A DNA stretch of 64,000 nucleotides, from positions 12,189 to 76,188 of the forward strand of contig DATKVX010000044.1 of NCBI GenBank assembly GCA_035529855.1. The letters are read 5' to 3'. The stretch's first letter is position 1; each line of letters starts with the position of its first letter. A program made the position numbers and the translations under genes. This document shows positions 39,751 to 54,684 of this stretch, piece after piece. This stretch comes from a bacterium. Lineage in GTDB: Bacteria > RBG-13-66-14 > B26-G2 > WVWN01. A model generated the notes under the pieces. It saw only the letters and a list, made by a program, of their open reading frames with translations. It did not search any database and was not told the DNA's origin.

Positions 39751-40994
39751 GCCACCTCCCGCGGGTCGGTAATGCTCCCCATCAGCGCCGAGGCCGCGGC
39801 CGTAGCCGGCGAACAGAGGTACGTCTCGCCGGCGCCCTGTTTGCCGGGGAAGTTGCGATTGGAGGTCGAGACCTGGACCTCTCCTTTGCCGGTCATACCG
39901 ATTTGGCCCTGGGCGCAGCCGCCGCAGCCGGCGTTGGAGACGACGAATCCGTAGCCGAAGAGCTCCGCGGCCAGCCCCTCCGCCAGCATCGCGCCGTAGA
40001 CGCGACGCGTCGCCGGGACGGCGTACGCCACCACGCCGCCGGCGACGGGCCGACCCGACATCACCCGGGCGACGGCGCGGAAGTCCTCCACCCGACCGTT
40101 GGTGCACGAGCCGAAGAAGGCCGAGCCTATTTCCTTCCCGGCGACCTCGCTCGCGGCTTTGACGTTGGCCGGCGACGGCGGGCACGCCACCAGCGGCTCG
40201 AGGCCGTCGACGTCGAGCTCGTACGTCGCCTCGTAGGAGGCATCCTCGTCGGCATAGACGCCCCGCACTTCCGCCCCCGCGGCCCCCTCGCACCACGCGA
40301 GCACCTCCTCGCTCGGCGGGATGAAAATAGCTATGGCGCCCATCTCCGTCGCCATCGACGCGACGGTGACCCGCTCCTCGACGGAGAGGGCGTCCGCGGC
40401 GGGCCCGTACAACTCCACCGCCTTGCCCAACAGGCCGCTCGAGCCGAACTCGCGGAGCATCGCGAGCGCCACGTCCTTGGCCGTCGTAGGCCACTTGTAT
40501 TTACCTTTCAATACGACTTTTACCGAAGGCGGGACCTCGAGCCAGGTACGGCCGGTGCGGAAGGCGAACGTTATGTCGGCGTCGCCCATCCCCTGGCCCA
40601 GGCAGCCGACGGCGCCCACGACGTTCATGTGGCTGTCGGTATTGACCACCGTCCCGCCCGGGCGCGCCAGCCCCTCCTCCATCAAGACGTGCGAGCCTAT
40701 GCCGGCGTCGACGTCGTATACCTTAATGCCCTGCCGCGCGGCGAACTCGCGGCAGAGTTGTTGGTTGTTGGCGTAGGGGATATCCTTGGCGGGGACGACG
40801 CAGTCGAAGGTAAAGAACGTCCGCGAGGCATCGGCCACCGGCATAGAGGTATAATGTCGGTCGAAGCTTCTAACGACGCTCGCGCCGCCGAAGTCGCGCG
40901 CGGCGCGGACGTCAAGCTCGAGCCAGACGGTAGCGCCCGGGTAAACCTCGTCGCCCGAGTGAGCGGCGATGATTTTTTCTATAATAGCAGGCAC
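39747..40994 (-). CDS. leuC: 3-isopropylmalate/homoaconitate dehydratase large subunit (type 2, ~415 aa)
   Basis: Aconitase-family motifs (NTDSHMN, FGSCTNGR, CGGCAQGQ, SNRNFPGKQG). Confidence 0.8.
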   Translation of the reverse strand: MPAIIEKIIAAHSGDEVYPGATVWLELDVRAARDFGGASVVRSFDRHYTSMPVADASRTFFTFDCVVPAKDIPYANNQQLCREFAARQGIKVYDVDAGIGSHVLMEEGLARPGGTVVNTDSHMNVVGAVGCLGQGMGDADITFAFRTGRTWLEVPPSVKVVLKGKYKWPTTAKDVALAMLREFGSSGLLGKAVELYGPAADALSVEERVTVASMATEMGAIAIFIPPSEEVLAWCEGAAGAEVRGVYADEDASYEATYELDVDGLEPLVACPPSPANVKAASEVAGKEIGSAFFGSCTNGRVEDFRAVARVMSGRPVAGGVVAYAVPATRRVYGAMLAEGLAAELFGYGFVVSNAGCGGCAQGQIGMTGKGEVQVSTSNRNFPGKQGAGETYLCSPATAAASALMGSITDPREVA

Positions 40995-41868: not shown

Positions 41869-42768
41869 TCAGCGCCACTCTACCTCGGGCGCGCCGCGGC
41901 CTATGGCGCGGCGGTATTTATATTTGGGATAGCCGAGCGCTAACGCGGCGTAGACGGCGTGGTCTTCCGGCAAACCCAGCGCTTCCCTGACCTCTTCGCT
42001 GCGGGCCGCGGCCGCGGTGAGCCAACCGACGAAGCACGTCCCCAGGCCCATGGCCGTCGCCATCATGACGAGCTGGGCGGCGGCGTAGTACGCCGTTTCC
42101 CGCGGCATTATCGCCGCCACCGGCGCGTGGAGGACGAGGACCACCGGCGCGTCGTGGAAGAGGTCGTCGCGGCCCGCGTCGTACGCCTCGACCAACCGCT
42201 TCATATCGTCCACCAAGGCGTAGGCTCCCAGCTTATCCTCGCGTTCGGCCACGGCGCCGTAAACGGTGCGGAGTATGGGGTTCTTCAGGCGCCGCACCGC
42301 TGTCCGGTGCCACTCCGCCGTCGCGTCGCGGACGCGGCGGATGCGCTTGGCCTCGCTCAGCGCAAGCACGCGAACCGGCCTGAGGTTGTGCGCGCTGGGG
42401 TACGACGACAGCGCCCGGCGTACCAACTCCTCCACCGCTTCGCGCGTAACCGGCTTGTCGCGGAAGACGCGGACCGAGCGTCGCGCGCGCAAGAGCGTCT
42501 CCAGCGCCGCCACGGTGGGGACCTTCCTGGCGCCGAGGGTCTTTATCGTGCCCTCCGGGTAGGCCTCGTGTTCGATGGCTTCCTCCGGGCACAGCGCGAC
42601 GCAGTGGCCGCAGCTGATGCAACGCTCCGGGTACGACGCTACGGCGAACTCCTCCAGCTCGTAGACGTCCTGGGGGCACGCCTCGACGCAGACGCCGCAG
42701 GCGTTGCATTTTACTTCGTCGACGTTTATGGCCGGCGGCTCGAGCGCCGGCTGGCTTTTATCAGTCAT
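41869..42768 (-). CDS. Ferredoxin-nitroreductase fusion protein (N-terminal 2x[4Fe-4S], C-terminal nitroreductase fold)
   Basis: CNACGVCVEACP and CISCGHCVALCP motifs, then a nitroreductase-like domain. Confidence 0.7.
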   Translation of the reverse strand: MTDKSQPALEPPAINVDEVKCNACGVCVEACPQDVYELEEFAVASYPERCISCGHCVALCPEEAIEHEAYPEGTIKTLGARKVPTVAALETLLRARRSVRVFRDKPVTREAVEELVRRALSSYPSAHNLRPVRVLALSEAKRIRRVRDATAEWHRTAVRRLKNPILRTVYGAVAEREDKLGAYALVDDMKRLVEAYDAGRDDLFHDAPVVLVLHAPVAAIMPRETAYYAAAQLVMMATAMGLGTCFVGWLTAAAARSEEVREALGLPEDHAVYAALALGYPKYKYRRAIGRGAPEVEWR

Positions 42769-43335: not shown

Positions 43336-44454
43336 TCAAACCCGCGCCGCCACAGCTTCCGCCATCTCCAGCGTGGAGCTTGAGCCGCCCATATCGTACG
43401 TGCGGACGCGGCCCTCCGCGATGACCGCGGCGACGGCGTTCTCCAAGGCCGCGGCCTTGTCCTCCTCGCCCAGGTACTCCAGCATCATCCGCGTCGCGAG
43501 CAGCGTCGCCGTCGGGTTGACCTTGGACTGGCCCGCGTACTTGGGCGCCGAGCCGTGCGTGGGCTCGAAGACGGCGTAGTCGTCGCCTATGTTGCCGGCG
43601 CAGGCGAAGCCCAGGCCGCCGACGAGCTGCGCGGCCTCGTCCGAGATGATGTCGCCGAACATGTTCTCGGCCACCAACACGTCGTAGTCCTGCGGGTTCT
43701 TGACGAGCCACATCGCCATAGCGTCGACGTTGGCCTCCCACAGTTCGACGTTCGGGTAGTCCTTCGCCACCTCGCGCGCGGTCCGGACCATCAGGCCGCC
43801 GGTCTCCCGCAGGACGTTGGGCTTCTCCACAATCGTTACCGAGCGGCGGCCTTTCTTCTCCGCGAACTCGAACCCGGCGCGCACGATGCGCGCGCACGCC
43901 TTCTTCGTCATTATCCGCGTCGAGATGGCGAGCTCGTCCAGCGGCACGCCCGCGAACGCCGCCATCTTCTTGTGGTTGGCCATAAGGCAATCGTAGACCG
44001 CCGGCGGGACCGGAGACCACTCCACGCCGGCGTACAGGCCCTCGGTATTCTCGCGGAAGATGACGAGGTCGACGTCGTCGCGGTAGTTGAGCGGGTTGCC
44101 GGCGTACGCCTTGCACGGCCGCATGTTGACGTAAAGGTCGAACTCCTGGCGCAGGCGGACGATGGGCGAATAGTAGACGTAGCCCTTATCCTGCAGCTCG
44201 GGCGCGAGCTCGCGCGCGGCCTCGTCCTTGGGCTTGGAGGTGATGGCGCCGAATAGCGCGCAATCGGTTCCGCGCATAAGGTCCTTGGTGCGTTCGGGCA
44301 GCGGGTTGCCCTCCGTGCGCCAGAACTCCCAGCCGATGTCGCCGCCGACGTACTCGGCGTCGAGCGCGAGGCGCTCCAGCACGAGCCGCGCCGCCTCCAT
44401 AACGTCGCGGCCTATGCCGTCGCCCGGCAGCCACGCAATTCTGTATTTGGCCAT
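43336..44454 (-). CDS. Isocitrate/isopropylmalate/homoisocitrate dehydrogenase family protein
   Basis: Beta-decarboxylating dehydrogenase motifs (NMFGDIISDEAAQLVGGLG…). 372 aa. Confidence 0.75.
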   Translation of the reverse strand: MAKYRIAWLPGDGIGRDVMEAARLVLERLALDAEYVGGDIGWEFWRTEGNPLPERTKDLMRGTDCALFGAITSKPKDEAARELAPELQDKGYVYYSPIVRLRQEFDLYVNMRPCKAYAGNPLNYRDDVDLVIFRENTEGLYAGVEWSPVPPAVYDCLMANHKKMAAFAGVPLDELAISTRIMTKKACARIVRAGFEFAEKKGRRSVTIVEKPNVLRETGGLMVRTAREVAKDYPNVELWEANVDAMAMWLVKNPQDYDVLVAENMFGDIISDEAAQLVGGLGFACAGNIGDDYAVFEPTHGSAPKYAGQSKVNPTATLLATRMMLEYLGEEDKAAALENAVAAVIAEGRVRTYDMGGSSSTLEMAEAVAARV

Positions 44455-44544: not shown

Positions 44545-45237
44545 ATGACGGACGACGTTAAAAAAGCGGCTCTGGCCGCTTCGCCGCTCTTCAAAAACCT
44601 CGCCCCGGCGGACGTGGGCCGCGTCGTCGGATTCTCCGTCTTCCGCGAGCTGGAGAAGGGAGAAGTCGTCTTCCGCGAGGGGGACGACGCAGCGGCCTTC
44701 TACGTCGTCGCCTCGGGCCGGGTCAAGGTTTTCAAGGAATCGGTCGACGGCCGTGAGCTTATCATAAAAATTATGCGCGCGGGGGACCTGGTAGGCGAGG
44801 CCGCCGCGCTGGCGGGCGTCCCCTACCCGGCGACGGCCCAGGCCCTCGACGACGCGGCCGCGGTAGAAATCCCGCGCCGCGAGTTCGTGGCGTTGATCGA
44901 AAACGAGCCGGACTTAGCGCTCAACATCATCGCCGCCCTCTCGGTCCGTCTGAACCAGATAAGCGCGGTACTCGAGAAGCTCACCCTTAAAGACGTGCCG
45001 GCGCGGCTGGCGTCGTACCTTCTGGAACGGGCGCGGGCCGGCGCCGACGGCCGGGAGTCCGTCGAGCTGGACGTGACTAAGACGTCGCTCGCGGCGGAAT
45101 TGGGAACGGTCCCGGAGACGCTGAGCCGGGCGCTAAGGCGGTTCGCCGAAGCGGGCCTGGTAGCGTCCAAGGGCAGGCGTATAATCATTTTAGATAAAGC
45201 CTCGCTCGAGCTCGTCGCCGGCAGTCCGAACGGCTAG
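44545..45237 (+). CDS. Crp/Fnr-family transcriptional regulator
   Basis: cNMP-binding-like beta-roll (VFREGD…FYVVASGRVKV) and a C-terminal HTH (TKTSLAAELGTVPETLSRALRRF). Confidence 0.8.
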   Translation: MTDDVKKAALAASPLFKNLAPADVGRVVGFSVFRELEKGEVVFREGDDAAAFYVVASGRVKVFKESVDGRELIIKIMRAGDLVGEAAALAGVPYPATAQALDDAAAVEIPRREFVALIENEPDLALNIIAALSVRLNQISAVLEKLTLKDVPARLASYLLERARAGADGRESVELDVTKTSLAAELGTVPETLSRALRRFAEAGLVASKGRRIIILDKASLELVAGSPNG

Positions 45238-45352: not shown

Positions 45353-46150
45353 ATGACCAAAGCAACCAGAAAAATCGTCGAAATAGACGAAGGACTTTGC
45401 GACGGCTGCGGCCTGTGCGTTCCGTCCTGCGCCGAGGGCGCCATCCGGATCGTCGACGGCAAGGCCCGGCTGGCGAGCGAAATTTATTGCGACGGCCTGG
45501 GCGCCTGCCTGGGCGAGTGTCCGCAAGGCGCCATTACCCTGGAGGAACGGCCCGCCGAGGAGTTCGACGCCGCCGCGGTGGAAGAACACCTACAAGGGCT
45601 CGGCCGCGAAGGAGGCACGGACCGGCACGAACACGAGGCCGCGGACGCGGCCACCGGGAGCCACACCGCCGACCACACCTTCAGCTGCCCGGGCGCGCGT
45701 ACGATGGTCTTGAAGCCGCGCGAAGACGAAGAGGGCACCGAGGTCGAGGCGACCGTAGAGGAGAAGTTGAAATCGGAACTCGGCCAGTGGCCCGTCAAGC
45801 TCTACCTCGTCGACCCCAACGCGCCGTATTTCCGGGACGCCGAGCTGCTGGTCTCCGCCGATTGCGCCCCCTTGGCCTACGCCGCCTTCCACCCCGACTT
45901 CCTCCGGGGGAAGGCCGTCGTCATCGGTTGCCCCAAGTTCGACGACGTCGCGCTCTACCGCGACAAGCTGACGGCCATACTGCGAGAAAACGACGTCCGC
46001 AAAGTCACGATCCTGCACATGGAAGTGCCCTGCTGCTTCGGCCTGGTCCAGGTGGCGAAGGAGGCGGTCGCGGCCTCGGGCAAGGATATACCCTTCGAGG
46101 ACGTGACGGCGACGATACGGGGCGAGGCAACGTCCGCCGCTGGCGTTTAA
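45353..46150 (+). CDS. 4Fe-4S ferredoxin-domain protein with a C-terminal Cys-containing domain of unknown function
   Basis: CDGCGLCVPSC…CDGLGACLGECP motifs. C-terminal GCPKFDD…EVPCCFG. Confidence 0.55.
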   Translation: MTKATRKIVEIDEGLCDGCGLCVPSCAEGAIRIVDGKARLASEIYCDGLGACLGECPQGAITLEERPAEEFDAAAVEEHLQGLGREGGTDRHEHEAADAATGSHTADHTFSCPGARTMVLKPREDEEGTEVEATVEEKLKSELGQWPVKLYLVDPNAPYFRDAELLVSADCAPLAYAAFHPDFLRGKAVVIGCPKFDDVALYRDKLTAILRENDVRKVTILHMEVPCCFGLVQVAKEAVAASGKDIPFEDVTATIRGEATSAAGV

Positions 46151-46215: not shown

Positions 46216-46695
46216 CTACTCCTCGCCGGCAAAGGCGTCAACGAACTTCGCCAGCGCGTCCCTCTTGGCGTCGGCGTCCTCCGTGGGGTCGTAGTACGCC
46301 ACGAGGACGAGCGCGCCGTTGGTCGCGACGGCGAATTCGCGTAGGACGTCCATCGCCAGCAGCTCGGCGTTGCGCTCGGCGCCGTACTCCCGGGCGAGGC
46401 CGTCGTCCGTGAAAGCGAACGCCTCGAGGATCACTTCGGGCCCCGCGCTGCTGTAGACGGCGTGCCACACGCACCCCTCCGGGAATTCGCGCGTGAGGTC
46501 GCCGCGGTTTTCGATGGGAATACCGGCCGACTTGAGCAGCGTCTCCGCGCGCGCCGCCTCCGGGAAGATGAGCTGCGCGGGCCGGGCCGTCTCCGCGACG
46601 GCGGCCTCGTCCCCGCCGGCCTGGCGGCCGTCGCCCTTGCCGCAGGCCGCCGCGATTAAAACGCACGTTACGGTTATGACTGCGAAGTCCCTCAT
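46216..46695 (-). CDS. Hypothetical lipoprotein
   Basis: Lipobox IAAAC-G, 159 aa. Confidence 0.45.
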   Translation of the reverse strand: MRDFAVITVTCVLIAAACGKGDGRQAGGDEAAVAETARPAQLIFPEAARAETLLKSAGIPIENRGDLTREFPEGCVWHAVYSSAGPEVILEAFAFTDDGLAREYGAERNAELLAMDVLREFAVATNGALVLVAYYDPTEDADAKRDALAKFVDAFAGEE

Positions 46696-47186
46696 TTATG
46701 CGCCAACTCCTTTTTAACGTAGGGCACCAGGCCGCCCGCCTCGAGTATGCCGAGCACCTCGGGCGGCAGCGGCGCGAATTCGTACTTCGAGCCGTCCGCG
46801 GCGGTCAGCTCGCCCGTCTCGAAATCAATAGTTATCTCGTCGCCGCCATTTATATATGGTATCGCTTCGGGGGCCGCGACCGTCGGTAGGCCGGCGTTGA
46901 TGGCGTTGCGGAAAAATATCCGCGCGAACGACGCCGCTACCACCGCGGCCACGCCGGCGTACTTCAGGCACAACGCCGCCTGCTCGCGGCTCGAGCCGCA
47001 GCCGAAGTTCTTCCCGGCGACGACGATATCCCCCGGCTTCACGTTCTTCGCGAAACCGGCGTCGAGGTCCTCGAGGGCGTGCGAAGCTATTTCGCCCGGA
47101 TCCGTAACGGTATAGGTGTACCGCCCGGGGAAGATGACGTCGGTGTTGACGTCGTCGCCGTACTTCCAGACCTTACCTTTTATCAT
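46692..47186 (-). CDS. leuD: 3-isopropylmalate/homoaconitate dehydratase small subunit, second copy (type 2)
   Basis: GKNFGCGSSREQAALCL…SFARIFFRNAINAG; 164 aa. Confidence 0.8.
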   Translation of the reverse strand: MIKGKVWKYGDDVNTDVIFPGRYTYTVTDPGEIASHALEDLDAGFAKNVKPGDIVVAGKNFGCGSSREQAALCLKYAGVAAVVAASFARIFFRNAINAGLPTVAAPEAIPYINGGDEITIDFETGELTAADGSKYEFAPLPPEVLGILEAGGLVPYVKKELAHK

Positions 47187-47301
47187 CCCGCTTCCCCCGC
47201 AGCGACAACCACGTCGTCAGCATCACGGCGCCGAGGCCGACGAAGAGCAAAAAGGCCAGGACTACCAAGATAATTACGATTAAAAACACCAACGACTCCA
47301 T
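47173..47301 (-). CDS. Candidate 42-aa hydrophobic micro-protein between leuC and leuD (MESLVFLIVIILVVLAFLLFVGLGAVMLTTWLSLRGKRDDKR)
   Basis: ATG 5 nt after the leuC stop. GC3 is about 80% despite AT-rich first and second codon positions. One predicted TM helix. The stop overlaps the leuD start. Not in the ORF track, which omits ORFs under 60 aa. Confidence 0.35.
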   Translation of the reverse strand: MESLVFLIVIILVVLAFLLFVGLGAVMLTTWLSLRGKRDDKR

Positions 47302-47305
47302 GCCA

Positions 47306-48562
47306 TCACGCCCTTACCGTCCGCGGGTCCGTAATCTTCCCATACAAAGCCGAGGCCGCGGCGGTCGCCGGCGAGCACAGATATACCTCGGCCTCGCTCG
47401 AGCCCATGCGGCCGCGGAAGTTGCGATTGGCGGTCGAGAGGCAGACTTCGCCCGCGGCCAATATCCCCTCGTGGGCGCCAAGGCACGGCCCGCAACCCGG
47501 GTTCATAATTACGCAGCCCGCCGCCGCCAGCGTCGCCAGCGCGCCGATGCCCAACGCCTCCAGGTACGTCGCCCGGCTGGCCGGGAAGACGAGGATCCGC
47601 ACGCCGCGCGCCACGCGCCGGTTCCGCAAGATATCCGCCGCCGCCACCAGGTCGTCGACGCGGCCGTTGGTGCACGTCCCGACCACGACCTGGTCCACGC
47701 GCGTCCCGGCGACCTCCGCAACCGGCACGACGTTATCGACCGTATGCGGACACGCCACCCGGGGCCCGAGGCCGGCGACGTCGTAGCTCAGTACGCGTTC
47801 GTACGCGGCGCCGTCGTCCGGCAAGACTTCGTCGTATTCACGGCGCGCCCGTCCGTCGAGGAAGGCGCGCGTCTTCTCGTCCGGCGCGACGTACGCGTTC
47901 TTGGCCCCCATCTCCGCGGCCATGTTGCACAGCGTCATCCGCCCGGACACCGACGTCGCCGCCGCCGTCGCCCCGGCGAACTCCACCGACCGGTAAAGCG
48001 CGCCGTCCGCGCCCTGGTCGCCGATTATATAAAGGATTAAATCCTTGGGGTAAACGTCGGCGCCGAACTCCCCCGCTACTTCCACCCGCAGCGATTCGGG
48101 GCACCGGAGCCACAGCTTGCCGGTGGCGTAGAGCGCCGCCATCTCGGTCCGCCCGATGCCCGCGGCGAACGCGCCCAATGCGCCGTACGACGTCGTATGG
48201 CTGTCCGCCCCCAGAATCAGTTCGCCCGGCAGCGCGAAGCCCTGCTCCGCGAAGACCTGGTGGCATATCCCCTCGCTTATGTCGAAGAAGTGTTCGATGT
48301 CGTTCGCCGCGACGAATTCCCGGATCTCGAGGTGGTTCCGGGCGTACTTCTCCGACGCCGCGGGGACGCAGTGGTCCAGGACGACGACGGCCTTACCCGG
48401 GTCGGCGACGCGCTTCAGGCCGAACGAGGCGAAGGTCTTCGCGATGGCCGCGGTATTGTCGTGGGAAAGGAGGCGGTCCGGCTCGAGCGTGACGATTTCG
48501 CCGGCGGCCACGGGCCGGCCGGCCTTACGAGAAAATATCTTTTCGGCGAAGCTTTGAGGCAT
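47306..48562 (-). CDS. leuC: 3-isopropylmalate/homoaconitate dehydratase large subunit, second copy (type 2)
   Basis: Aconitase-family motifs (GADSHTTSYGALGAFAAGIG, VGTCTNGR, NPGCGPCLG, STANRNFRGRMG). 418 aa. Confidence 0.8.
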   Translation of the reverse strand: MPQSFAEKIFSRKAGRPVAAGEIVTLEPDRLLSHDNTAAIAKTFASFGLKRVADPGKAVVVLDHCVPAASEKYARNHLEIREFVAANDIEHFFDISEGICHQVFAEQGFALPGELILGADSHTTSYGALGAFAAGIGRTEMAALYATGKLWLRCPESLRVEVAGEFGADVYPKDLILYIIGDQGADGALYRSVEFAGATAAATSVSGRMTLCNMAAEMGAKNAYVAPDEKTRAFLDGRARREYDEVLPDDGAAYERVLSYDVAGLGPRVACPHTVDNVVPVAEVAGTRVDQVVVGTCTNGRVDDLVAAADILRNRRVARGVRILVFPASRATYLEALGIGALATLAAAGCVIMNPGCGPCLGAHEGILAAGEVCLSTANRNFRGRMGSSEAEVYLCSPATAAASALYGKITDPRTVRA

Positions 48563-48623: not shown

Positions 48624-49160
48624 TCACTTCAATTTAAACGGCTCGAAATTTATAAAGTCCGCGTGGTGTATTATTATGGCCTCCGGCGTCGCCCGGGCGC
48701 CCTCGCCCTCGCGGGCGTGCGTCGCGACGACGTGTACCACCGCCGGCGGCAGGCCGAACTCGTAGGCCAGCGCCGCCCCCGAGAACGGGTGCCGGAGCAT
48801 CCGGCCCAGCTCCGACTTGACGAACGCGCCGCCCTCCTCGCGATACTCCAGCAGCTTGCCGACGTCGTGCAGCAGCGCCCCGGCGAGCAAGTGGTCGCGG
48901 TTTATATCCAGCCGGGAACCGTACGTCTCGGCCACCACGGCCGCGACGGCGGCCGCGCATCGCGTTACGGCGCGGGTGTGCTCGAGGTACGTCGCCGGGC
49001 ACGGCTCGAGCAGCAGCGTGAACGGCATCCGCGCCATATCCTCGGGTTGCCAGCCGCCGCGCTCGAGCGCGGCCTCGTAGGCCGCGACGACCTTACCGCG
49101 CAGCGCGTCGTCTTCTATCTCCGCCAACTCCGGCAGGAGCTCGCTTATTTTTTCTTCCAT
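48624..49160 (-). CDS. HD-domain phosphohydrolase
   Basis: H…HD…D metal-binding pattern (LHDVGK…HHADF). Confidence 0.65.
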   Translation of the reverse strand: MEEKISELLPELAEIEDDALRGKVVAAYEAALERGGWQPEDMARMPFTLLLEPCPATYLEHTRAVTRCAAAVAAVVAETYGSRLDINRDHLLAGALLHDVGKLLEYREEGGAFVKSELGRMLRHPFSGAALAYEFGLPPAVVHVVATHAREGEGARATPEAIIIHHADFINFEPFKLK

Positions 49161-49173
49161 AATGCACCTCGAG

Positions 49174-49950
49174 CTAAGTTAAATGCCTTTCGTCCGGGCC
49201 GTCGTACGCCCACGCCGACGGCTCGAGGCGCCGCATAGGCCGCTCGCGCGCCCGCTCCTCGAGAACGTGCGCCAGCCACCCGGGCATGCGCGCCAGGATG
49301 AAGAAGGCGTTGGCGGCGTACGGCTCGAAACCCAGGTCGAAGAGGCACGCCGCGATGGCGCCGTCGACGTTCAGCGGCAGCGCCTTGCCGGTAACGCTCG
49401 CCAGCGGCGCCTCGAGCGCGCGGACCATCGGAATACCCTCGCGCGCCAGGCCCAGCTCCTCCGCCAGCGCGAAGAGCCGCGCCGCCCGCGGGTCGTCGTC
49501 GTGGAGGCGGTGGCCGAAACCCTCCACCCGCCGGCCCGCCTCGCGGTAGCGTTCCACTATCGCCGCCGCGGCCTCCTCCCGTAAGACGCCCGCCTCCTTC
49601 ATCTCGGCTAGCGCCTCGGCCAGCGCGTTCATACATCCCTCGACCGCGCCGCCGTGGAAGCGGTTGACGGCCAGGACCCCGGAGGCCAACGCGGCGTTGA
49701 CCGGCGCGCCGGTAGAGGCCGCCGTGCGCGCCGCCAGCGTGGACGGCGGCGTTACGCCGTGGTCCACCGACGACACCAGTATGGCGTCGAGCAGCTTCCC
49801 CTCAGCCTCGCCGGGCAGCTCGCCCCGCAGCGCGAGCCATACGACCTCGGCGAAGCTCTTGCGGCCCATCAGCTCCTCGATGGGGTATCCGCGGAGGCGG
49901 ATTTTATTCGGGCCGACGTCGGTGATTGCCGTGTGCCATTTATCAACCAT
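49174..49950 (-). CDS. Short citrate-synthase-family protein (citryl-CoA lyase-like)
   Basis: 258 aa, homologous to the citrate synthase C-terminal catalytic domain (…GFGHRLH…DPRA…, PNVDGAIAA). This is the same size class as citryl-CoA lyase from split ATP-citrate-lyase systems. Confidence 0.55.
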   Translation of the reverse strand: MVDKWHTAITDVGPNKIRLRGYPIEELMGRKSFAEVVWLALRGELPGEAEGKLLDAILVSSVDHGVTPPSTLAARTAASTGAPVNAALASGVLAVNRFHGGAVEGCMNALAEALAEMKEAGVLREEAAAAIVERYREAGRRVEGFGHRLHDDDPRAARLFALAEELGLAREGIPMVRALEAPLASVTGKALPLNVDGAIAACLFDLGFEPYAANAFFILARMPGWLAHVLEERARERPMRRLEPSAWAYDGPDERHLT

Positions 49951-49981
49951 AAAAATCTCCCGTTAACAACGCTATGACCTG

Positions 49982-50290
49982 CTACCCCCGCTCGGGCGAG
50001 TAGACGACGCGGCCTTCGCGCATCGCGTGCTGCACGAGGGGGCTCTCTCTTTTAGCGCGGTTGAACTCCGCGGGCGTGTACACGATCATATTCACCCTTT
50101 CACGGCTCTTGAGTTTTTCTTCGAAATATATCTGGCGCTCCTTGAACGGCAACTCGCTCGGGGCGACGACGATGAGACATATCTTCGAGTCGGCCCGGGC
50201 TTCGCCGCGGGCGACGGCGCCGTGGACGACGACGAACGTCGCCCCCGACATCACGAGGCGCGGGACGAGGAAATTAATCTCGGCCTCCAT
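49982..50290 (-). CDS. Nucleotidyltransferase-domain protein (MNT-like, minimal)
   Basis: 102 aa with GS…h[DE]h-type Pol-beta NTase features. No HEPN partner adjacent. Confidence 0.5.
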   Translation of the reverse strand: MEAEINFLVPRLVMSGATFVVVHGAVARGEARADSKICLIVVAPSELPFKERQIYFEEKLKSRERVNMIVYTPAEFNRAKRESPLVQHAMREGRVVYSPERG

Positions 50291-50351
50291 CTCGCGCTGC
50301 CGCGTTATCTTGGGCTTCTCGGCCGTCGTTCACCTCTTGCCCGGCGGTTAC

Positions 50352-50759
50352 CTACGGGCCGTCGAGTTCGTTTAAAAAGGCTTCCACCCGGGCGCGGATT
50401 TCGTCGCGCGCGCGGCGGTAATCATCCAAGGCCAGGCGGTACGGGTCGTCTATAGGCCAGTGGAGACGTTTGCCCTCGCCCGGGAAGTACGGGCACAACT
50501 CCCGCGCATTATCGCATAGCGTAATAACGTAGTCAAACTCTTCGCCGAGGAATTCGTCGACGCCCTTGGAGCGCTGGTGCGATATGTCCACGCCGGCCTC
50601 CGCCATGACCTCCACCGTCAGCCGCACGACGTCGAAGGGGTTCACGCCGGCGGAGTGGGCCTCGAGGCGGCCCGCGCCCAGGCGGTTCGCCCACCCCTCC
50701 GCCATCTGCGAGCGGCACGAGTTCCCGGTGCAAACGAAAAGTATTTTTATCTTCTTCAT
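50352..50759 (-). CDS. arsC: Low-molecular-weight phosphotyrosine-phosphatase-family arsenate reductase
   Basis: CTGNSCRS P-loop and downstream Cys; 135 aa. Confidence 0.75.
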   Translation of the reverse strand: MKKIKILFVCTGNSCRSQMAEGWANRLGAGRLEAHSAGVNPFDVVRLTVEVMAEAGVDISHQRSKGVDEFLGEEFDYVITLCDNARELCPYFPGEGKRLHWPIDDPYRLALDDYRRARDEIRARVEAFLNELDGP

Positions 50760-50775
50760 CCGACGAGCTGTTCCG

Positions 50776-52230
50776 TTATTTCCCGGGGCCGGGCCGAAAC
50801 CGCAGAAGCCACAGCCGCGCGTCCGCGGCCACGGCGCGCATCATGTGGTGGAAGGGCACCGCCCGCGGTTCCTTCACCCAATACATCGGGAAGTGCGAGA
50901 CCGCGCGTAACACCGTCGTTATCAGGAAGGCGACCTTCATGTCGAGTATTCGCCACCCGCCGAGCGAGACGTAACGCGGCAGCATCGCGACGAACTGGCC
51001 CGAGCCGATGGTCGCGACCAGGCCCCCCGCGCCGGCGACGACGGCGTAGACCGCGACGTAGTTATCCCGCTTGGCCTCCGGGCTCAGGCGGATGATGAGG
51101 TTCGTCGTCGCGACCATAGCCCCGCCCCACATCGCGCCCGACGTGACGGCCTCCAGCCAAACCCACCAGTAAAGGTCCGGCCGCATGAAAACGTACACGA
51201 ACGAGTTAACCGTCGCCATCAGGATAAGGCCCCGGAAAACGGGCTTGTTGCCAAAGCGGTCTATCAGACGACCCCACAGCGCCGCCGTCGCCGCCATCGC
51301 GATTATCAAAAGCGAGTTGTATATCTGAACGGCGGTTAGCGACATGCGCAACACTTCGAGGTAGAACGGCTGCCAGAACGGCGCCCCGAAAGATACGGCG
51401 AACCACCACCATCCGAAGAAATATACCAGGCGGCGGAAGCGGCGGTCGCGGAGGGGCTCGGCCAACGAGCGGAACGAAAAGCGTACGACCGGCGCCGGGC
51501 GGTCGCGCTGCCGCAACAGCAGCAGCGTAGAGGCGAGGCCCGCGACGCCGGCAAAGGCGAATATTATAAAGTAGGCGTACCGTTCTCCCCCCGGGCCCCA
51601 CAGGCCGCCGGCAACGCCGAACAGGCGGCGAAAGAACCCCGTCAGGCCCGTTTCGCCCCCCGGCACGGAAAGGTCTTTAAAAATGCTGGCGGCGAAGGCG
51701 ACGACCAACCCCAGCGCCATCATCAGCTGCGTCCGCTTGCCGAGGAAACGGCCGCGGATGCGCTCCGGGACGACGGCGCCGATCCAGCTCGTCCACACGC
51801 TGGTCATGACGCCGGTGAGAACTTGCGAGGCCAGGAAACAGACGATAAAGACGACGAGCGCCGCCTCCGGCTCGAGCCAAAGCACCACCGCCGGAATGAA
51901 GAAGATTACGCCGCGCGCGGCCGCGCTGGCCGCGACGACCAGCCGACGGCGCGAGCCGCCGAAGAGCGGCAGTAGCACCGGCCCCAATACCTGCGAAAAC
52001 GCAATGACCGGGCCCGCGGCGAAGATCAAGCCGAACGCCCGGCTCCCGGCGCCCAGGCTTAACGCCAGCGCCGTGATGAACGCCGACCAGGCGCCGGCGA
52101 GGTTTAAGAACATCTGGCCGAAGAGGCCCTCGCATACCGAGGCCCGCATGTCCGGTCGGGGCCGTAGTTTGGCTAACGCCGGCGACGCCGGCGTACAAGT
52201 CAAACCATCTCTTCGCTTTTCGTCGCTCAT
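50776..52230 (-). CDS. MFS transporter
   Basis: Twelve predicted TM segments. The N-terminal extent is uncertain; an alternative start is the MRASVCEG… codon. Confidence 0.65.
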   Translation of the reverse strand: MSDEKRRDGLTCTPASPALAKLRPRPDMRASVCEGLFGQMFLNLAGAWSAFITALALSLGAGSRAFGLIFAAGPVIAFSQVLGPVLLPLFGGSRRRLVVAASAAARGVIFFIPAVVLWLEPEAALVVFIVCFLASQVLTGVMTSVWTSWIGAVVPERIRGRFLGKRTQLMMALGLVVAFAASIFKDLSVPGGETGLTGFFRRLFGVAGGLWGPGGERYAYFIIFAFAGVAGLASTLLLLRQRDRPAPVVRFSFRSLAEPLRDRRFRRLVYFFGWWWFAVSFGAPFWQPFYLEVLRMSLTAVQIYNSLLIIAMAATAALWGRLIDRFGNKPVFRGLILMATVNSFVYVFMRPDLYWWVWLEAVTSGAMWGGAMVATTNLIIRLSPEAKRDNYVAVYAVVAGAGGLVATIGSGQFVAMLPRYVSLGGWRILDMKVAFLITTVLRAVSHFPMYWVKEPRAVPFHHMMRAVAADARLWLLRFRPGPGK

Positions 52231-53135
52231 ACCTCGCCCAGGTCCTTCAAGACTCCCAACGCGTACTCGGCTACCTTATCGTAGTCCTCCACGACTATGG
52301 CCCCCGCCTCGCGCAGCGCCTTCACCTTGCCCTCGTACGTGCCGCGGCCGCCCTCGACGATGGCGCCGGCGTGCGAGAAGCGCGTCCCCGCCGTCGCGGC
52401 CTTGCCGCCTATGAACGCCACCACCGGCTTCGTAACCACGCCTTCGGAAATAAGCTCGGCGACCTTCTCTTCCTGGCTGCCGCCTATTTCGCCGAACATC
52501 ACGACGGCCTTGGTGTCGGCATCCTCCTGGAACAACCGAACGACGTCCTGGTGAGGCGTGCCGACGATGGGGTCGCCGCCGACGTGCACGAGAGTGGTCG
52601 CGCCGACGCCCGCCCGGCCGAGGTAGTACGCCAGCGACGACGTTATTCCGCCCGAGCGCGACGAGATGCCGACCGGCCCGGGTTTGAACCACTCCCGCGC
52701 CGACTCGGGCCGGCCGCCGACCATACCCAGCACGGCCTTGTCCACCGAGAGCACGCCCAACGTGTTGGGGCCCACGTAGCGCGCGCCGGCTTCGCGCGCC
52801 GCCGCGTCTATGGCCATCACGTCCCATATCGGTACCCGGTCGGGGACCAGCACGGCCAGCTTGACGCCGCCGGCGAAGGCCTCCAACGCGGCCTCCTTCA
52901 CCGCGGGCCCGGGCACGAAGACGACCGCCGCGTAGATCTCCCCTACCGCCTCGGCCGCCGCGGCCACCGTATCGAAGACCGGGACGCCCTCCACCTCCTC
53001 GCCGCCGTGGCCCGGCGAGACGCCGGCGACAACGTTGGTCCCGTAGCCCTTCATGAGGCGGGTGCGCGCCCGCCCCTCGCGGCCGGTAATGCCGGCGACG
53101 AGGACTTTATCCTCTTTACTTACTAAGATTGACAT
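52227..53135 (-). CDS. Succinyl-CoA synthetase alpha-subunit family protein (CoA-binding; SucD / citryl-CoA-synthetase small-subunit-like)
   Basis: CoA-binding Rossmann N-terminus and the phospho-His loop region (SRSGGITSS…GGD…GEIGG). Confidence 0.7.
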   Translation of the reverse strand: MSILVSKEDKVLVAGITGREGRARTRLMKGYGTNVVAGVSPGHGGEEVEGVPVFDTVAAAAEAVGEIYAAVVFVPGPAVKEAALEAFAGGVKLAVLVPDRVPIWDVMAIDAAAREAGARYVGPNTLGVLSVDKAVLGMVGGRPESAREWFKPGPVGISSRSGGITSSLAYYLGRAGVGATTLVHVGGDPIVGTPHQDVVRLFQEDADTKAVVMFGEIGGSQEEKVAELISEGVVTKPVVAFIGGKAATAGTRFSHAGAIVEGGRGTYEGKVKALREAGAIVVEDYDKVAEYALGVLKDLGEV

Positions 53136-53136
53136 A

Positions 53137-54684
53137 TCAACGCGTCTTCTTCAAATAATCGTCCAACCCGGGGATAGGCAGCGTTATCAGGCCGCCGCCG
53201 TTGCCGCGCGCCCGGCACTCCACCTCGCACGCCAGGCACTCGCTACAGCGCCCGCGCGCCGCCTCGTCGGCGCCGATATTCAAGACCGGCCTGCCGTCCT
53301 CCAGCGTAAGGATTCGCGGGACGCATTCCGCCACGCATACTTTGGAATCGCATCCTTCGCATCGCGCGTAATCGTAGGAGACGGTCCCGCCCGTAACCGT
53401 CTTAAAAGAATAAGAAGACTTATGTTGCACCCGGGGCGGCTTCTCGCGGCGAGCGCCGTAGTCGTAGCCGTCCACGAGCTCGCGCAGTCGCGCCGCGCAG
53501 TACCGCGCCGGCGTATCCTTGCCGTAGCACTCCACCGGCGCGGGCAAGTCCTCCGTATATTCGGTCAGTATCCGGATGGCGCGCTCTTCCTGGTTGCCGC
53601 CCAGCCGCTCGACGCAGGGGACGTCGAGCCAAACCTCGCGGAAGGCCTTGACCAGGCCCCGGGCGGAGTGGAATTGTTCCTGGCTCGCGACGCCGGAGCC
53701 GGAGCCGAAGTAACCGACGAGGTTCCTCTGGGCCAGCAATATGCGTGCCGCGCGGTAGACTTTACTCGCCGGCGGGTTGCCGGAGGTGTCGCAAAAGTCG
53801 GCTATCTTAAAACCCTCGGCCAGCGCGGCGTCCATCGACATCATCGAGCCGCCGCCGCCGGCGCCGTGGAACGCGACGTAGCGTTCTTCCCGCTCGAAGC
53901 CCTCCGCGAGCTGGACGAAATAAAACGTGCCGCGGTAGTCGTCCTTCTCGACGTTGTAGGCGATGAGGTCCAGCTCGGTGGGCGGCCGGTCGAACTCGCG
54001 GGCGACCTCCACGCCGAGCTCCGGGTGCCGGTATACGGCGTAGTCGTCCACCGTAACGCGGCAGTCCGCGGCCACGACCTCGCCGGCGTCGGTCACGACC
54101 AGCGGGTTTATCTCCGCCGCCCGGGCCTCGGCGTCGCGGGCGACGCGCCACAGCTTCACCAAGACGTCCGCTACGGCCACGAGCTCGCGGCCCCGCAGGC
54201 CCGCGCGCCGCGCCAACTCCCGCGCGTCGTAACCGTAAAGGCCGCGCGCCGGCTCGACGTACATTCTTACCAGCGCCTCCGGGTGGGCGGCGGCTATCTC
54301 CTCGACGCCGCTGCCGCCGACGGACGAAAATATGAGGAGGGGTTTGCGGGCGTCGTTGTCGACGACGACCGCGGCGTACATCTCCCGGGCGACGTCCAAC
54401 TTCCGCTCGACCAGGACGACGTCGCAGCGCTGGCCCTTGAACTTGCGGCCCAATAAGTCGCGGCCGGCGACGCGTTCCGCGGCCATGGCGTTTTCGGCGA
54501 ACTGGATGCCGCCCACGGCCGCCCGGCCGGTTATGAAGACCTGGGCCTTCAGAACGACCGGCGCGCCGATCTCCCGGGCGATGACCGCGGCCTCGGCGCC
54601 GGAACGAACGGCACGTCCCGGCGGGACATCCACGCCCGCCCGCCGCAGGAGCTCTTTACCCTGGTATTCGTATAAACGGGCCAT
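53137..54684 (-). CDS. ATP-grasp succinyl-CoA-synthetase beta-subunit-like protein fused to a C-terminal 2x[4Fe-4S] ferredoxin domain
   Basis: N-terminus MARLYEYQGKELLRRAGV (SucC-like ATP-grasp). C-terminal CEGCDSKVCVAEC and CSECLACEVEC motifs. 515 aa. Confidence 0.65.
   Translation of the reverse strand: MARLYEYQGKELLRRAGVDVPPGRAVRSGAEAAVIAREIGAPVVLKAQVFITGRAAVGGIQFAENAMAAERVAGRDLLGRKFKGQRCDVVLVERKLDVAREMYAAVVVDNDARKPLLIFSSVGGSGVEEIAAAHPEALVRMYVEPARGLYGYDARELARRAGLRGRELVAVADVLVKLWRVARDAEARAAEINPLVVTDAGEVVAADCRVTVDDYAVYRHPELGVEVAREFDRPPTELDLIAYNVEKDDYRGTFYFVQLAEGFEREERYVAFHGAGGGGSMMSMDAALAEGFKIADFCDTSGNPPASKVYRAARILLAQRNLVGYFGSGSGVASQEQFHSARGLVKAFREVWLDVPCVERLGGNQEERAIRILTEYTEDLPAPVECYGKDTPARYCAARLRELVDGYDYGARREKPPRVQHKSSYSFKTVTGGTVSYDYARCEGCDSKVCVAECVPRILTLEDGRPVLNIGADEAARGRCSECLACEVECRARGNGGGLITLPIPGLDDYLKKTR

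Follow-up and report, generated by a model that had tools for sequence, protein, structure and literature searches.

A candidate citryl-CoA synthetase/citryl-CoA lyase variant with a predicted ferredoxin-like module in a widespread operon of uncultured bacteria

The locus lies in a window of 64,000 nucleotides, the whole stretch of bacterial DNA that was analysed. Six ORFs were confirmed on the minus strand at the positions where a first-pass annotation had placed them, and Pfam and NCBIfam agreed on their assignments. In the direction of transcription, they encode a SucC-like beta (large) subunit of 515 aa (53137-54684), a SucD-like alpha (small) subunit of 302 aa with CoA-binding and phosphohistidine domains (52227-53135), an MFS transporter (50776-52230; Pfam MFS_1 match), an LMW phosphatase/thioredoxin-type ArsC-like protein (50352-50759; Pfam LMWPc, 88.9 bits), a small nucleotidyltransferase (NTase) with a weak MntA-like match (49982-50290; Pfam Polbeta and NTP_transf_2, both below cut-off) and a 258-aa short citrate-synthase family protein, the citryl-CoA lyase (CCL; 49174-49950). 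The trio claimed by the annotation, i.e. a SucC-like protein with ferredoxin motifs, a SucD-like protein and a short citrate-synthase homologue on one strand, was thus confirmed, as were the MFS, ArsC and NTase genes between its members. Further along the same strand lie a conserved operon member of unknown role with an HD/HDIG domain (48624-49160; Pfam HD, 52.8 bits), the large subunit of an aconitase-family enzyme of the archaeal LeuC/HacA type (47306-48562; NCBIfam PRK00402, 555 bits, cut-off 385), its small subunit of the LeuD/HacB type (46692-47186; NCBIfam TIGR02087, 205 bits, cut-off 109) and a beta-decarboxylating dehydrogenase of the isocitrate/homoisocitrate type (43336-44454; Pfam Iso_dh, 307 bits).

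The 258-aa protein passed two NCBIfam citryl-CoA-lyase models, NF004869 with 251 bits (cut-off 212) and NF004866 with 248.7 bits (cut-off 245). Its best PDB match is 6hxp_A, the CCL of Hydrogenobacter thermophilus, with 172 bits compared to 87 for the runner-up. Alignment to E. coli GltA showed that all active-site residues are kept, the catalytic and oxaloacetate-binding positions being H64, H99, H147, R155, D196 and R221. The first-pass annotation had described a protein of CCL size whose homology to citrate synthase was limited to the C-terminal half. The size held, but the second part did not: about 50 residues at the N-terminus are homologous to the GltA start, and an internal block of about 115 residues is missing.

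The alpha subunit matches the Pfam families CoA_binding, Ligase_CoA and Succ_CoA_lig. It scored 276 and 270 bits with the NCBIfam SucD models, just below their cut-offs of 336 and 353, and by score it is nearer to SucD than to CcsB, the PDB matches being succinyl-CoA synthetase (SCS) alpha subunits with 257 (Aeropyrum) and 246 bits and CcsB with 164 bits. The alignment covers residues 15-302 of the 353 in CcsB, and nothing in alpha matches the remainder. In the PDB alignment 'fsHAGAIv' of alpha is paired with 'mGHAGAIi', and His255 in S-H-A-G-A is the predicted phosphohistidine. The beta subunit matches Pfam ATP-grasp_2 with 172 bits and displays the motifs E191-INPL, D299-TSGNPP, S328-GSGVASQEQFHSARG and R360-LGGN. 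Judged by the ATP-grasp, CoA-binding and phospho-His motifs, all of which are present, the ligase machinery is intact.

The body of beta (residues 1-405; 53470-54684) consists of the ATP-grasp region and a C-terminal substrate domain. With the NCBIfam SucC models it reached 230 bits against cut-offs of 370-375, i.e. 140 bits short. Pfam Ligase_CoA never matched the beta subunit, whereas it matches SucC of E. coli and Thermus with 114 and 75 bits, respectively. Pfam Citrate_bind, the corresponding domain of ATP-citrate lyase (ACL), scored 20.5 bits on the window protein, below its cut-off of 26.8, 19-32 bits across family beta proteins and 59 bits on CcsA; a weak match to Citrate_synth_N was also found. 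Among PDB entries, Thermus SucC scored 207 bits, CcsA 147 and AclB 68. An AF2 model of the fused protein (pLDDT 93.4, pTM 0.83) matched SCS beta, CcsA and ACLY in Foldseek, with E-values of 1e-20 to 1e-23 for ACLY and AclB. The SucC motif 'DxGGGA' is replaced by 'DTSGNPP', and 'GNPPA.K.Y' is common to beta and CcsA. A tree built by neighbour joining (NJ) only, with sampling biased toward the query, separated E. coli/Thermus-type SucC from a group made up of CcsA, the family and its unfused relatives (88% bootstrap). An invariant loop, SGSGVASQEQFHSARG, differs from its counterparts in SucC and CcsA, and also from that of human ACLY, and thus substrate specificity is not readable from it. These sequence features indicate that the beta subunit is not SucC and that the C-terminal substrate domain of its body belongs to the ACL/CCS "citrate-binding" type, CCS being citryl-CoA synthetase. 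The case that the first-pass annotation had set against its own reading was a pair falling firmly inside bona fide SCS. Since beta scores below the SucC cut-offs, carries the ACL/CCS-type domain and groups with CcsA, the pair does not fall there: beta lies outside the SucC clade and alpha just below the SucD cut-offs.

The remainder of beta (residues ~420-515 with the stop codon; 53137-53427) is a ferredoxin-like module. Eight cysteines, C442-x2-C445-x4-C450-x3-C454 and C480-x2-C483-x2-C486-x3-C490, lie in the last ~95 aa. Both motifs occur in 120/120 best homologues, and none of the eight cysteines varies across 86 aligned sequences with a mean column identity of 68%; the pattern is not due to chance. 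The window module stays under every cut-off of the Pfam Fer4 families (Fer4_9, 17.6 bits, cut-off 27), and its stand-alone orthologue at locus L092, 51% identical, passes Fer4_6 with 28.9 bits (cut-off 25). The domain model has a pLDDT of 93.8, and its Foldseek matches, though weak (E >= 0.09), are all Fe-S ferredoxin-like proteins, among them clostridial ferredoxin 1fdn/1fca (TM 0.63-0.66 normalised to target), FixX 7koe_D and, from archaeal RNA polymerase, the Fe-S domain of subunit D. The cysteines, CxxCxxxxCxxxC followed by CxxCxxCxxxC, are predicted ligands of two [4Fe-4S] clusters. At L091 and L092 the module is a separate gene of 84-98 aa between beta and alpha; some stand-alone copies are named FixX by JGI. 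Given this stand-alone form and the invariance of the cysteines, the module is an integral third component of the ligase, fused here and a separate small subunit elsewhere. We consider it a new feature; we found no published description of it. Ordinary SucC lacks the fusion, as the first-pass annotation had claimed. It is, as a correction to that annotation, not rare: a genome scan detected the SucC-like/ferredoxin fusion in at least 594 species-level genomes.

The survey of gene order covered 80 genomes belonging to many phyla. At 71/73 loci beta is followed by alpha, and at 51/53 the lyase lies within 2.5 kb downstream of alpha. The order beta-alpha-CCL is kept in Anaerolineae, Calditrichia, Marinimicrobia, Acidobacteriota, KSB1, Ignavibacteria, Hydrothermota, Zixibacteria and a Firmicute, and a family member from Planctomycetota (P0052) shows 61% identity. 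The genes that usually come after the lyase are the HD protein, LeuCD-type aconitase subunits, the dehydrogenase of the isocitrate dehydrogenase (IDH) type and an MmgE/PrpD-family protein. Among the 35 loci showing 8 kb of downstream sequence, the HD protein, for which no PDB relative was found, follows CCL in 26, the aconitase large subunit is present in 19 and the dehydrogenase in 20, while in 13 the last operon gene is of the MmgE/PrpD family. The dehydrogenase sits directly inside the operon in most other genomes. The large subunit is closest in the PDB to the M. jannaschii IPM/citramalate isomerase (403 bits) and homoaconitase (350 bits), and the dehydrogenase to Thermus homoisocitrate dehydrogenase (250 bits) and NAD-IDH (234 bits). 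As the order is conserved across phyla, the trio is not a chance neighbourhood; it is part of an uncharacterised operon that is very widespread among uncultured bacteria.

The MFS, ArsC and NTase genes are a clade-specific insertion outside this conserved unit. The MFS gene, whose start codon overlaps the stop codon of alpha, has no NCBIfam match and is confined to the window's own clade (L010, L012-L014 and L004); the NTase gene is conserved in L010, L013 and L014 at 72-81% identity, and the ArsC-like protein scored 125.7 bits with NCBIfam arsC_pI258, below the cut-off of 174. A close relative, CP070633, has beta-alpha-MFS with CCL absent nearby. At L092, the trio orthologues lie in a catabolic-looking setting beside a GntR regulator and a TRAP transporter, together with a PrpB-like lyase (284 bits with the methylisocitrate lyase model), flavoproteins and a fumarase-like enzyme.

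We consider it reasonably probable that these genes represent a distinct, widespread variant of the CCS/CCL system, which interconverts citrate with acetyl-CoA and oxaloacetate, here with an Fe-S module. Beta (ATP-grasp) and alpha (CoA-binding, phospho-His255) would couple ATP/ADP to citryl-CoA formation from citrate and CoA; the reaction would run via phosphohistidine and acyl-phosphate, in line with the established mechanism of the SCS/ACL superfamily. The lyase would interconvert citryl-CoA and acetyl-CoA plus oxaloacetate by the His/His/Asp triad of citrate synthase. With its products linked to the aconitase-type and IDH-type enzymes, the operon would span acetyl-CoA + oxaloacetate, citrate, isocitrate and 2-oxoglutarate. 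Both citrate as the substrate and cluster binding we infer. Since the ligase chemistry needs no electrons, a structural or sensing role seems plausible for the module, which possibly makes the citrate step responsive to redox state or Fe-S status; such a coupling would match downstream dehydratases that themselves depend on Fe-S. The alternative of the first-pass annotation, a redox-gated acyl-CoA ligase, may also be right. The overall reaction lies close to equilibrium, and the host lineages are mostly heterotrophic. We lean slightly towards the direction that forms citrate, conserves ATP and supplies 2-oxoglutarate synthesis, over cleavage. The aconitase-type and IDH-type partners suit either direction of the citrate/2-oxoglutarate branch.

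The first-pass annotation had likened the genes to CCS plus CCL of reductive TCA (rTCA) organisms. The likeness is upheld by the lyase models, the 6hxp_A match, the operon and the position of beta outside SucC, but the rTCA link is not, as ~71 kb of the source contig contain no OGOR, PFOR or fumarate reductase; gltA and canonical sucCD were likewise not found there. In an rTCA cycle, as known from Aquificaceae and Leptospirillum, the pair would split citrate with ATP and so regenerate acetyl-CoA and oxaloacetate during autotrophic CO2 fixation, and the ferredoxin module might connect to ferredoxin-dependent steps. We regard this as unlikely. At least 594 species carry the operon, in lineages commonly regarded as heterotrophic (Anaerolineae, Calditrichia and Marinimicrobia, for example), and the setting of the L092 orthologues looks catabolic. 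The IDH-type and aconitase-type genes would, nevertheless, serve the reductive direction also. All organisms in which CCS/CCL is known to date use the rTCA cycle (PMC13147460), ccl in Zixibacteria is counted as an rTCA marker by MAG surveys (PMC11279179), and a Planctomycetes bin with a similar trio is described, in its paper's rTCA section, as having further rTCA genes (PMC5459899).

Two further explanations concern the ligase substrate. An ordinary SCS with an accessory Fe-S domain might stand beside a short, self-sufficient citrate synthase, as co-located TCA enzymes that pass no citryl-CoA. The raw scores, which for both subunits favour bona fide SCS structures (Thermus/Aeropyrum) over CcsA/CcsB and run counter to our CCS/CCL reading, would fit this, as would an alpha subunit just ~60 bits under a SucD cut-off and a window without other sucCD. 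It is made highly improbable by the beta subunit, with its 140-bit shortfall, the missing Ligase_CoA-type domain, 'DTSGNPP' instead of 'DxGGGA' and its place apart from SucC in the NJ tree, and by the short citrate-synthase homologue, which belongs to the CCL family and is not full-length. The same architecture could also act on another acyl pair, e.g. as a split ATP-coupled methylcitrate synthase (propionyl-CoA + oxaloacetate, 2-methylcitryl-CoA, 2-methylcitrate), or activate an imported hydroxy-tricarboxylate. The MmgE/PrpD-family gene at the operon end (13/35 loci) and the PrpB-like lyase, flavoproteins and fumarase-like enzyme of L092 hint at 2-methylcitrate or another hydroxy-tricarboxylate in some members, and transporters are attached in L092 and the window. 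For the family we think this very unlikely, as the associated MmgE/PrpD proteins are far below the PrpD cut-offs (122 bits vs 458-950) and the window operon encodes no PrpB but a dehydrogenase of the IDH type, which cannot act on 2-methylisocitrate, a tertiary alcohol. That the lyase retains the oxaloacetate-binding residues of citrate synthase does not discriminate between acyl donors.

Among known systems, CcsAB/Ccl of H. thermophilus (PDB 6HXQ, 6HXP) shares the three separate genes and the ~260-aa short citrate-synthase homologue, its Ccl being the nearest solved relative of the window lyase. CcsA resembles beta in the GNPPA.K.Y motif, the Citrate_bind-type domain and the NJ grouping, but identity is just ~29% and the 429-aa chain 6hxq_B lacks the eight-Cys module. 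CcsB is longer than alpha, and the window genes, unlike those of H. thermophilus, share one operon with aconitase- and IDH-type genes, in mesophilic uncultured lineages rather than Aquificaceae. As a precedent for our reading, a similar trio in the Planctomycetes OTU-14 bin was read as putative CCS/CCL (Thiel et al., 2017, PMC5459899); that paper's rTCA section mentions neither a ferredoxin domain nor an aconitase/IDH operon. ACL (Chlorobium AclAB, ACLY and the proposed type II ACL) has the same three modules and overall reaction, but its alpha-type and CCL modules are fused, as in the 617-aa 6hxj_B, it has no Fe-S module, and the similarity of AclB to beta is much lower. SucCD is the most similar system by raw score and has the same fold, phosphohistidine mechanism and division into two subunits. 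It differs in that the window proteins are below its cut-offs, beta has other substrate-site loops and no Ligase_CoA-type C-terminal domain, and the window system has a ferredoxin module and obligate synteny with citryl-CoA lyase. Finally, the module itself resembles 2x[4Fe-4S] bacterial-type ferredoxins and FixX-like proteins in its two Cys motifs and predicted beta-alpha-beta ferredoxin fold. It differs from them in its first motif, CxxCxxxxCxxxC, in a last cysteine without a following proline and in its dedication to a CoA ligase, the reaction of which does not require electron transfer.

Gene calling, with Pfam and NCBIfam in agreement, revealed a row of co-directional, tightly packed genes on the window's minus strand, from 43.3 to 54.7 kb. 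The row begins with a SucC-like beta subunit of 515 aa (53137-54684) and a SucD-like alpha subunit of 302 aa (52227-53135), which starts 1 bp past beta. These are followed by an MFS transporter whose start overlaps the alpha stop codon (50776-52230), an LMW-phosphatase/ArsC-like protein (50352-50759), a small MntA-like nucleotidyltransferase (49982-50290) and a short citrate-synthase homologue of 258 aa (49174-49950). Directly after the latter come an HD/HDIG-domain protein (48624-49160), the large (LeuC/HacA-type, 47306-48562) and small (LeuD/HacB-type, 46692-47186) subunits of an aconitase-type enzyme, a 159-aa protein without a family match (46216-46695) and, past two plus-strand genes, an Iso_dh-family dehydrogenase (43336-44454). 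The three genes singled out by the first-pass annotation, SucC-like, SucD-like and short citrate synthase, are present on one strand at 49174-54684, and our finding goes beyond them to a conserved operon rather than three scattered genes. In a promoter/terminator scan, terminator-like sites were no more numerous than by chance.

The fused beta-ferredoxin architecture of the 515-aa protein is common. A word-indexed search yielded 5923 matches at E <= 1e-10, the best 120 of which were all about 505-535 aa long and contained both cysteine motifs. At least 594 carrier genomes were detected in a scan of one genome per species. The best 80 of these carriers were all MAGs or SAGs, with the closest (89%) from Zixibacteria, and they included Zixibacteria, Anaerolineae, Calditrichia, Marinimicrobia, Acidobacteriota, KSB1, Ignavibacteria, Hydrothermota, Gemmatimonadota and others. 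Synteny was counted by tblastn of the window's proteins on the carrier loci, in some cases with gene calls and Pfam. Beta was followed by alpha in 71 of 73 loci, and the homologue of citryl-CoA lyase (CCL) lay within 2.5 kb downstream of alpha in 51 of 53 loci, 42 of them with a distance of at most 400 bp. Since this order is kept across many loci and phyla, beta, alpha and CCL are not a chance neighbourhood. Among 35 loci with 8 kb visible downstream, an Iso_dh dehydrogenase was found in 20, an aconitase-type pair in 19 and an MmgE/PrpD-family protein in 13. The HD/HDIG protein follows the lyase in 26 of the 35 and has no sequence relative in the PDB. The transporter, ArsC and nucleotidyltransferase genes do sit between members of the trio, as had been noted earlier, but within the conserved operon this block is an insertion, confined to the window's own clade (loci L010, L013 and L014). 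In a relative, CP070633, beta, alpha and the MFS gene are kept and CCL is absent nearby.

The 258-aa protein was compared with the citryl-CoA lyase class (EC 4.1.3.34, NCBIfam PRK06224 group) and scored above both curated cut-offs (NF004869, 251.1 against 212; NF004866, 248.7 against 245). Its best solved relative in a PDB search is the CCL of Hydrogenobacter thermophilus (6hxp_A), matched over nearly its full length with 172 bits, followed by methylcitrate synthase with 87 bits and the C-terminal modules of ATP-citrate lyase (ACL) with about 56. Alignment places H64, H99, H147, R155, D196, F217 and R221 on H229, H264, H305, R314, D362, F383 and R387 of E. coli GltA, so that this short citrate-synthase fold of about 260 aa retains both catalytic His and the Asp, as well as the Arg residues that bind oxaloacetate. 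It had been described as homologous only to the C-terminal half of citrate synthase; it is indeed a short homologue, but the alignment shows that an N-terminal piece is kept and an internal block is missing. A pseudogene or fragment was ruled out, because the protein has the length of a complete CCL and is conserved in different phyla. The best reading of the sequence is therefore a putative citryl-CoA lyase, which would convert citryl-CoA to acetyl-CoA and oxaloacetate.

Alpha consists of CoA-binding and ligase domains according to Pfam, and its His255 lies in an S-H-A-G-A motif that aligns to the phosphohistidine motif G-H-A-G-A of the alpha subunit of succinyl-CoA synthetase (SCS). Beta contains an ATP-grasp domain with conserved EINPL and RLGGN motifs. 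The pair thus has the composition of the SCS-superfamily heteromer expected of a citryl-CoA synthetase (CCS, EC 6.2.1.18), an ATP-grasp subunit and a CoA-binding phosphohistidine subunit, and in the same 51 of 53 loci it is genetically associated with a citryl-CoA lyase. Raw PDB scores are nearer to SCS for both subunits, with 207 bits for beta to the Thermus enzyme against 147 to CcsA, the large CCS subunit, and 257 bits for alpha to the Aeropyrum enzyme against 164 to CcsB, the small one. A bona fide succinyl-CoA synthetase would nevertheless be expected to pass the curated NCBIfam models, and both proteins stay below them (beta 230.6 and 229.5 against SucC cut-offs of 375.55 and 370; alpha 276.3 and 270.3 against SucD cut-offs of 336 and 353.2). 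The Pfam domains were compared as well. As controls, E. coli and Thermus SucC match Ligase_CoA at 114 and 75 bits and never Citrate_bind, and H. thermophilus CcsA matches Citrate_bind at 59.2 bits and never Ligase_CoA. The family betas never matched Ligase_CoA and reached 19-32 bits with Citrate_bind: 20.5 for the window beta, below the cut-off of 26.8, 26.0-26.5 for P0097 and P0117, two other family proteins, and 32.4 for the beta of L092, a Firmicute contig. ADP-forming acetyl-CoA synthetase, the name NCBI gives to some members, was rejected at 18.6 bits with AcCoALig_Archglob, whose cut-off is 1200.

For a beta tree, 1.84 billion cluster representatives were searched exhaustively for nearer and farther relatives, and neighbour joining was run on 376 columns with 200 bootstraps; the sample is biased toward the query and contains no ACL sequences. 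In one split, with 88% support, the family stands together with its unfused 400-425-aa DTSGNPP relatives and CcsA, apart from SucC of the E. coli/Thermus type. In a second, with 80% support, the family and the unfused relatives are joined and CcsA is left out, so that the family is not CcsA's sister. The likeness to CCS proposed in the first-pass annotation is partly supported, in that this tree puts beta apart from SucC, on the CcsA side; beta is not sister to CcsA, however, and raw scores are nearer to SucC and SucD. The motif GNPPA.K.Y is common to the family betas and CcsA, at a position where SucC has GGGA. In the alignments, the family betas have an invariant loop, SGSGVASQEQFHSARG, unlike the matching loop of SucC or CcsA, and therefore known residues give no substrate specificity. 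The counterpart in human ACLY presumably differs as well. Alpha lacks the C-terminal extension of CcsB, its 302 aa aligning only to CcsB residues 15-302 of 353; statements on the stalk element of CcsB and ACL are based on chain lengths and on PMC9560492.

The two ferredoxin motifs reported for the C-terminus of the 515-aa protein were confirmed as C442-x2-C445-x4-C450-x3-C454 and C480-x2-C483-x2-C486-x3-C490. All eight cysteines are invariant in 86 aligned sequences and the motifs occur in 120 of the 120 best homologues; a chance cysteine pattern was ruled out by this invariance. The window module remains under all Pfam Fer4 cut-offs (best, Fer4_9, 17.6 bits against 27). An AlphaFold model of full-length beta is confident throughout (pLDDT 93.4, pTM 0.83) and predicts a compact beta-alpha-beta domain beyond a well-ordered linker at the C-terminus; when the whole model was compared with the PDB, matches were confined to the SCS/CCS/ACL-like body. 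The module modelled alone (pLDDT 93.8) has weak structural matches in the PDB (E >= 0.09), which are nearly all Fe-S ferredoxin-like, including all 40 best; oxalate oxidoreductase, archaeal RNA-polymerase subunit D, HdrA, FixX and clostridial 2[4Fe-4S] ferredoxin are among them. The module is predicted to bind two [4Fe-4S] clusters through its eight cysteines.

Stand-alone copies of the module with 75-100 aa are common. In locus L091, which carries the unfused relative P0133, both motifs are found in an 84-aa gene (1444-1698) between a 409-aa beta and alpha. Similarly, L092 has a separate 98-aa module gene between beta and alpha; its product is 51% identical to the window module and lies above the Fer4_6 cut-off (28.9 bits against 25). 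Beta of L092 shares 60% identity with the window beta and 62-67% with other fused members, and the split and fused forms therefore constitute one orthologous family. Both the invariant cysteines and the stand-alone gene between beta and alpha in relatives argue that the module is a fixed third component of the enzyme, sometimes a separate subunit, and not a fusion accident. In literature on citryl-CoA with ferredoxin, 4Fe-4S or fusion, we found no description of an Fe-S module as a fixed part of an SCS-superfamily enzyme. Since the ligase chemistry does not need electrons, we infer a structural or sensing role; one possibility is that the module makes the citrate step dependent on redox or Fe-S status. 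The module could be a new instance in which Fe-S regulates central metabolism.

The aconitase-type subunits are closest in the PDB to the isopropylmalate/citramalate isomerase and homoaconitase of M. jannaschii, and the Iso_dh dehydrogenase to Thermus homoisocitrate dehydrogenase and NAD-isocitrate dehydrogenases. The MmgE/PrpD proteins associated with the operon are far from true PrpD. Given a citrate-synthase-family enzyme with an oxaloacetate site next to aconitase- and IDH-type partners, the simplest reading is a unit that spans acetyl-CoA and oxaloacetate, citrate, isocitrate and 2-oxoglutarate. The source contig (ENA ERZ27256810 k141_938795), over the roughly 71 kb that were searched, showed no gltA, canonical sucCD, sucA, 2-oxoglutarate or pyruvate:ferredoxin oxidoreductase or fumarate reductase. 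The flanks of 87 loci contained no full-length citrate synthase, and sucCD, sucA and the two oxidoreductases were likewise not detected there.

Several further genes were observed around the operon. A 42-aa ORF lies between the aconitase large and small subunit genes at 47187-47305 (17384-17512 of the source-contig locus L001). On the opposite strand, the gap between the operon and Iso_dh holds a Cys-less Crp-family regulator (44545-45237) and a 265-aa Fer4/AF_0155 protein (45353-46150), and a nitroreductase fused to two Fer4 motifs is encoded at 41869-42768. A second LeuC/LeuD-type pair on the minus strand (39747-40994 and 39214-39744) adjoins a saccharopine dehydrogenase (37977-39137); many related loci likewise have two such pairs, about 55-62% and about 37% identical to the operon pair. 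On the plus strand, a 647-aa GatB_N protein (33482-35425) and a 467-aa GatD_N and Asparaginase protein (36337-37740) look like the archaeal-type GatE/GatD Glu-tRNA(Gln) amidotransferase, here on a bacterial contig.

The mechanism of SCS, CCS and ACL via a phosphohistidine is established. By analogy with these enzymes, beta would bind the nucleotide and alpha His255 would be phosphorylated; the phosphate would then move to a carboxylate and be displaced by CoA, giving citryl-CoA, which the lyase would cleave or form. For ATP-dependent citrate cleavage about -8 kJ/mol is given (Table 1, PMC13147460), and the overall reaction is therefore near equilibrium. The operon fits either direction, and citrate cleavage, possibly in the reductive TCA cycle, is among the options. 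Citrate formation that conserves ATP and supplies 2-oxoglutarate is slightly favoured, because most carriers belong to lineages described as heterotrophs, the operon is self-contained to 2-oxoglutarate, and Desulfobacter postgatei runs ACL in the citrate-forming direction. Run toward citrate, the pair would keep as ATP the thioester energy that an ordinary citrate synthase loses, which has a bearing on how ACL and citrate synthase are proposed to have evolved from CCS/CCL. In a fuller proposal, the ferredoxin module would make the ligase a valve at the citrate node gated by Fe-S or redox, and the pair would replace citrate synthase by two ATP-conserving steps in hundreds of energy-limited, uncultured anaerobic species; this is speculative and less likely than not. 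If true, it would mean that a common variant of the TCA cycle's opening step has gone unrecognised.

Other settings were found as well. L092 (1-15902, Desulfotomaculum-like, Logan SRR35947633) carries the same orthologous set next to AcnX, a GntR regulator, a TAXI-TRAP transporter, a PrpB-like lyase, an MmgE/PrpD-like protein, two TfrA-like flavoproteins, an Fe-S protein and a class-I fumarase-like pair. By gene content this cluster looks catabolic or methylcitrate-cycle-like. The differing neighbours therefore indicate that the system serves more than one setting, and some members may act on related tricarboxylates. In Desulfitobacterium hafniense DCB-2, proteomics showed 5-30-fold co-induction of ACL21108-ACL21112 during pyruvate fermentation, a cluster of malic enzyme, citryl-CoA lyase beta, SCS alpha, a hypothetical protein and SCS beta (PMC9888536). 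This cluster may represent a related system, here in an organism that has been cultured, and its hypothetical protein might be a stand-alone ferredoxin module. Desulfitobacterium proteins were not among the best 120 matches of the unfused L092 beta.

These results describe a system related to CCS/CCL but distinct from it in at least 594 species-level genomes of many phyla, at a time when CCS/CCL is otherwise treated as a rare hallmark of autotrophy. Reviews confine CCS/CCL to Aquificaceae and Leptospirillum (PMC13147460), and a mud-volcano survey counted Zixibacteria ccl as a marker of the reductive TCA cycle (PMC11279179). Annotation pipelines name the system succinyl-CoA synthetase, acetate--CoA ligase family or ATP-grasp protein, and in genome surveys it is now taken either for a succinyl-CoA synthetase or for a sign of reductive-TCA autotrophy. 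Its function, once known, would alter the scoring of carbon fixation and TCA completeness for Anaerolineae, Calditrichia, Marinimicrobia, Zixibacteria and others.

ACL (AclA/AclB) carries its alpha-type and CCL modules in one chain, whereas in the window these are separate ORFs 2.3 kb apart, and alpha and CCL were separate matches in all 51 loci where both were seen. A comparable trio from a Planctomycetes bin was annotated as SCS alpha and beta and citrate synthase by Thiel et al. (2017), who read it as a CCS/CCL that lies between type II ACL and the enzymes of Aquificae; the part of their paper that treats the trio does not mention a ferredoxin domain (PMC5459899). Judged by its sequences, the present system is best filed as a variant of CCS/CCL, set apart from both the characterised CcsAB family and succinyl-CoA synthetase.
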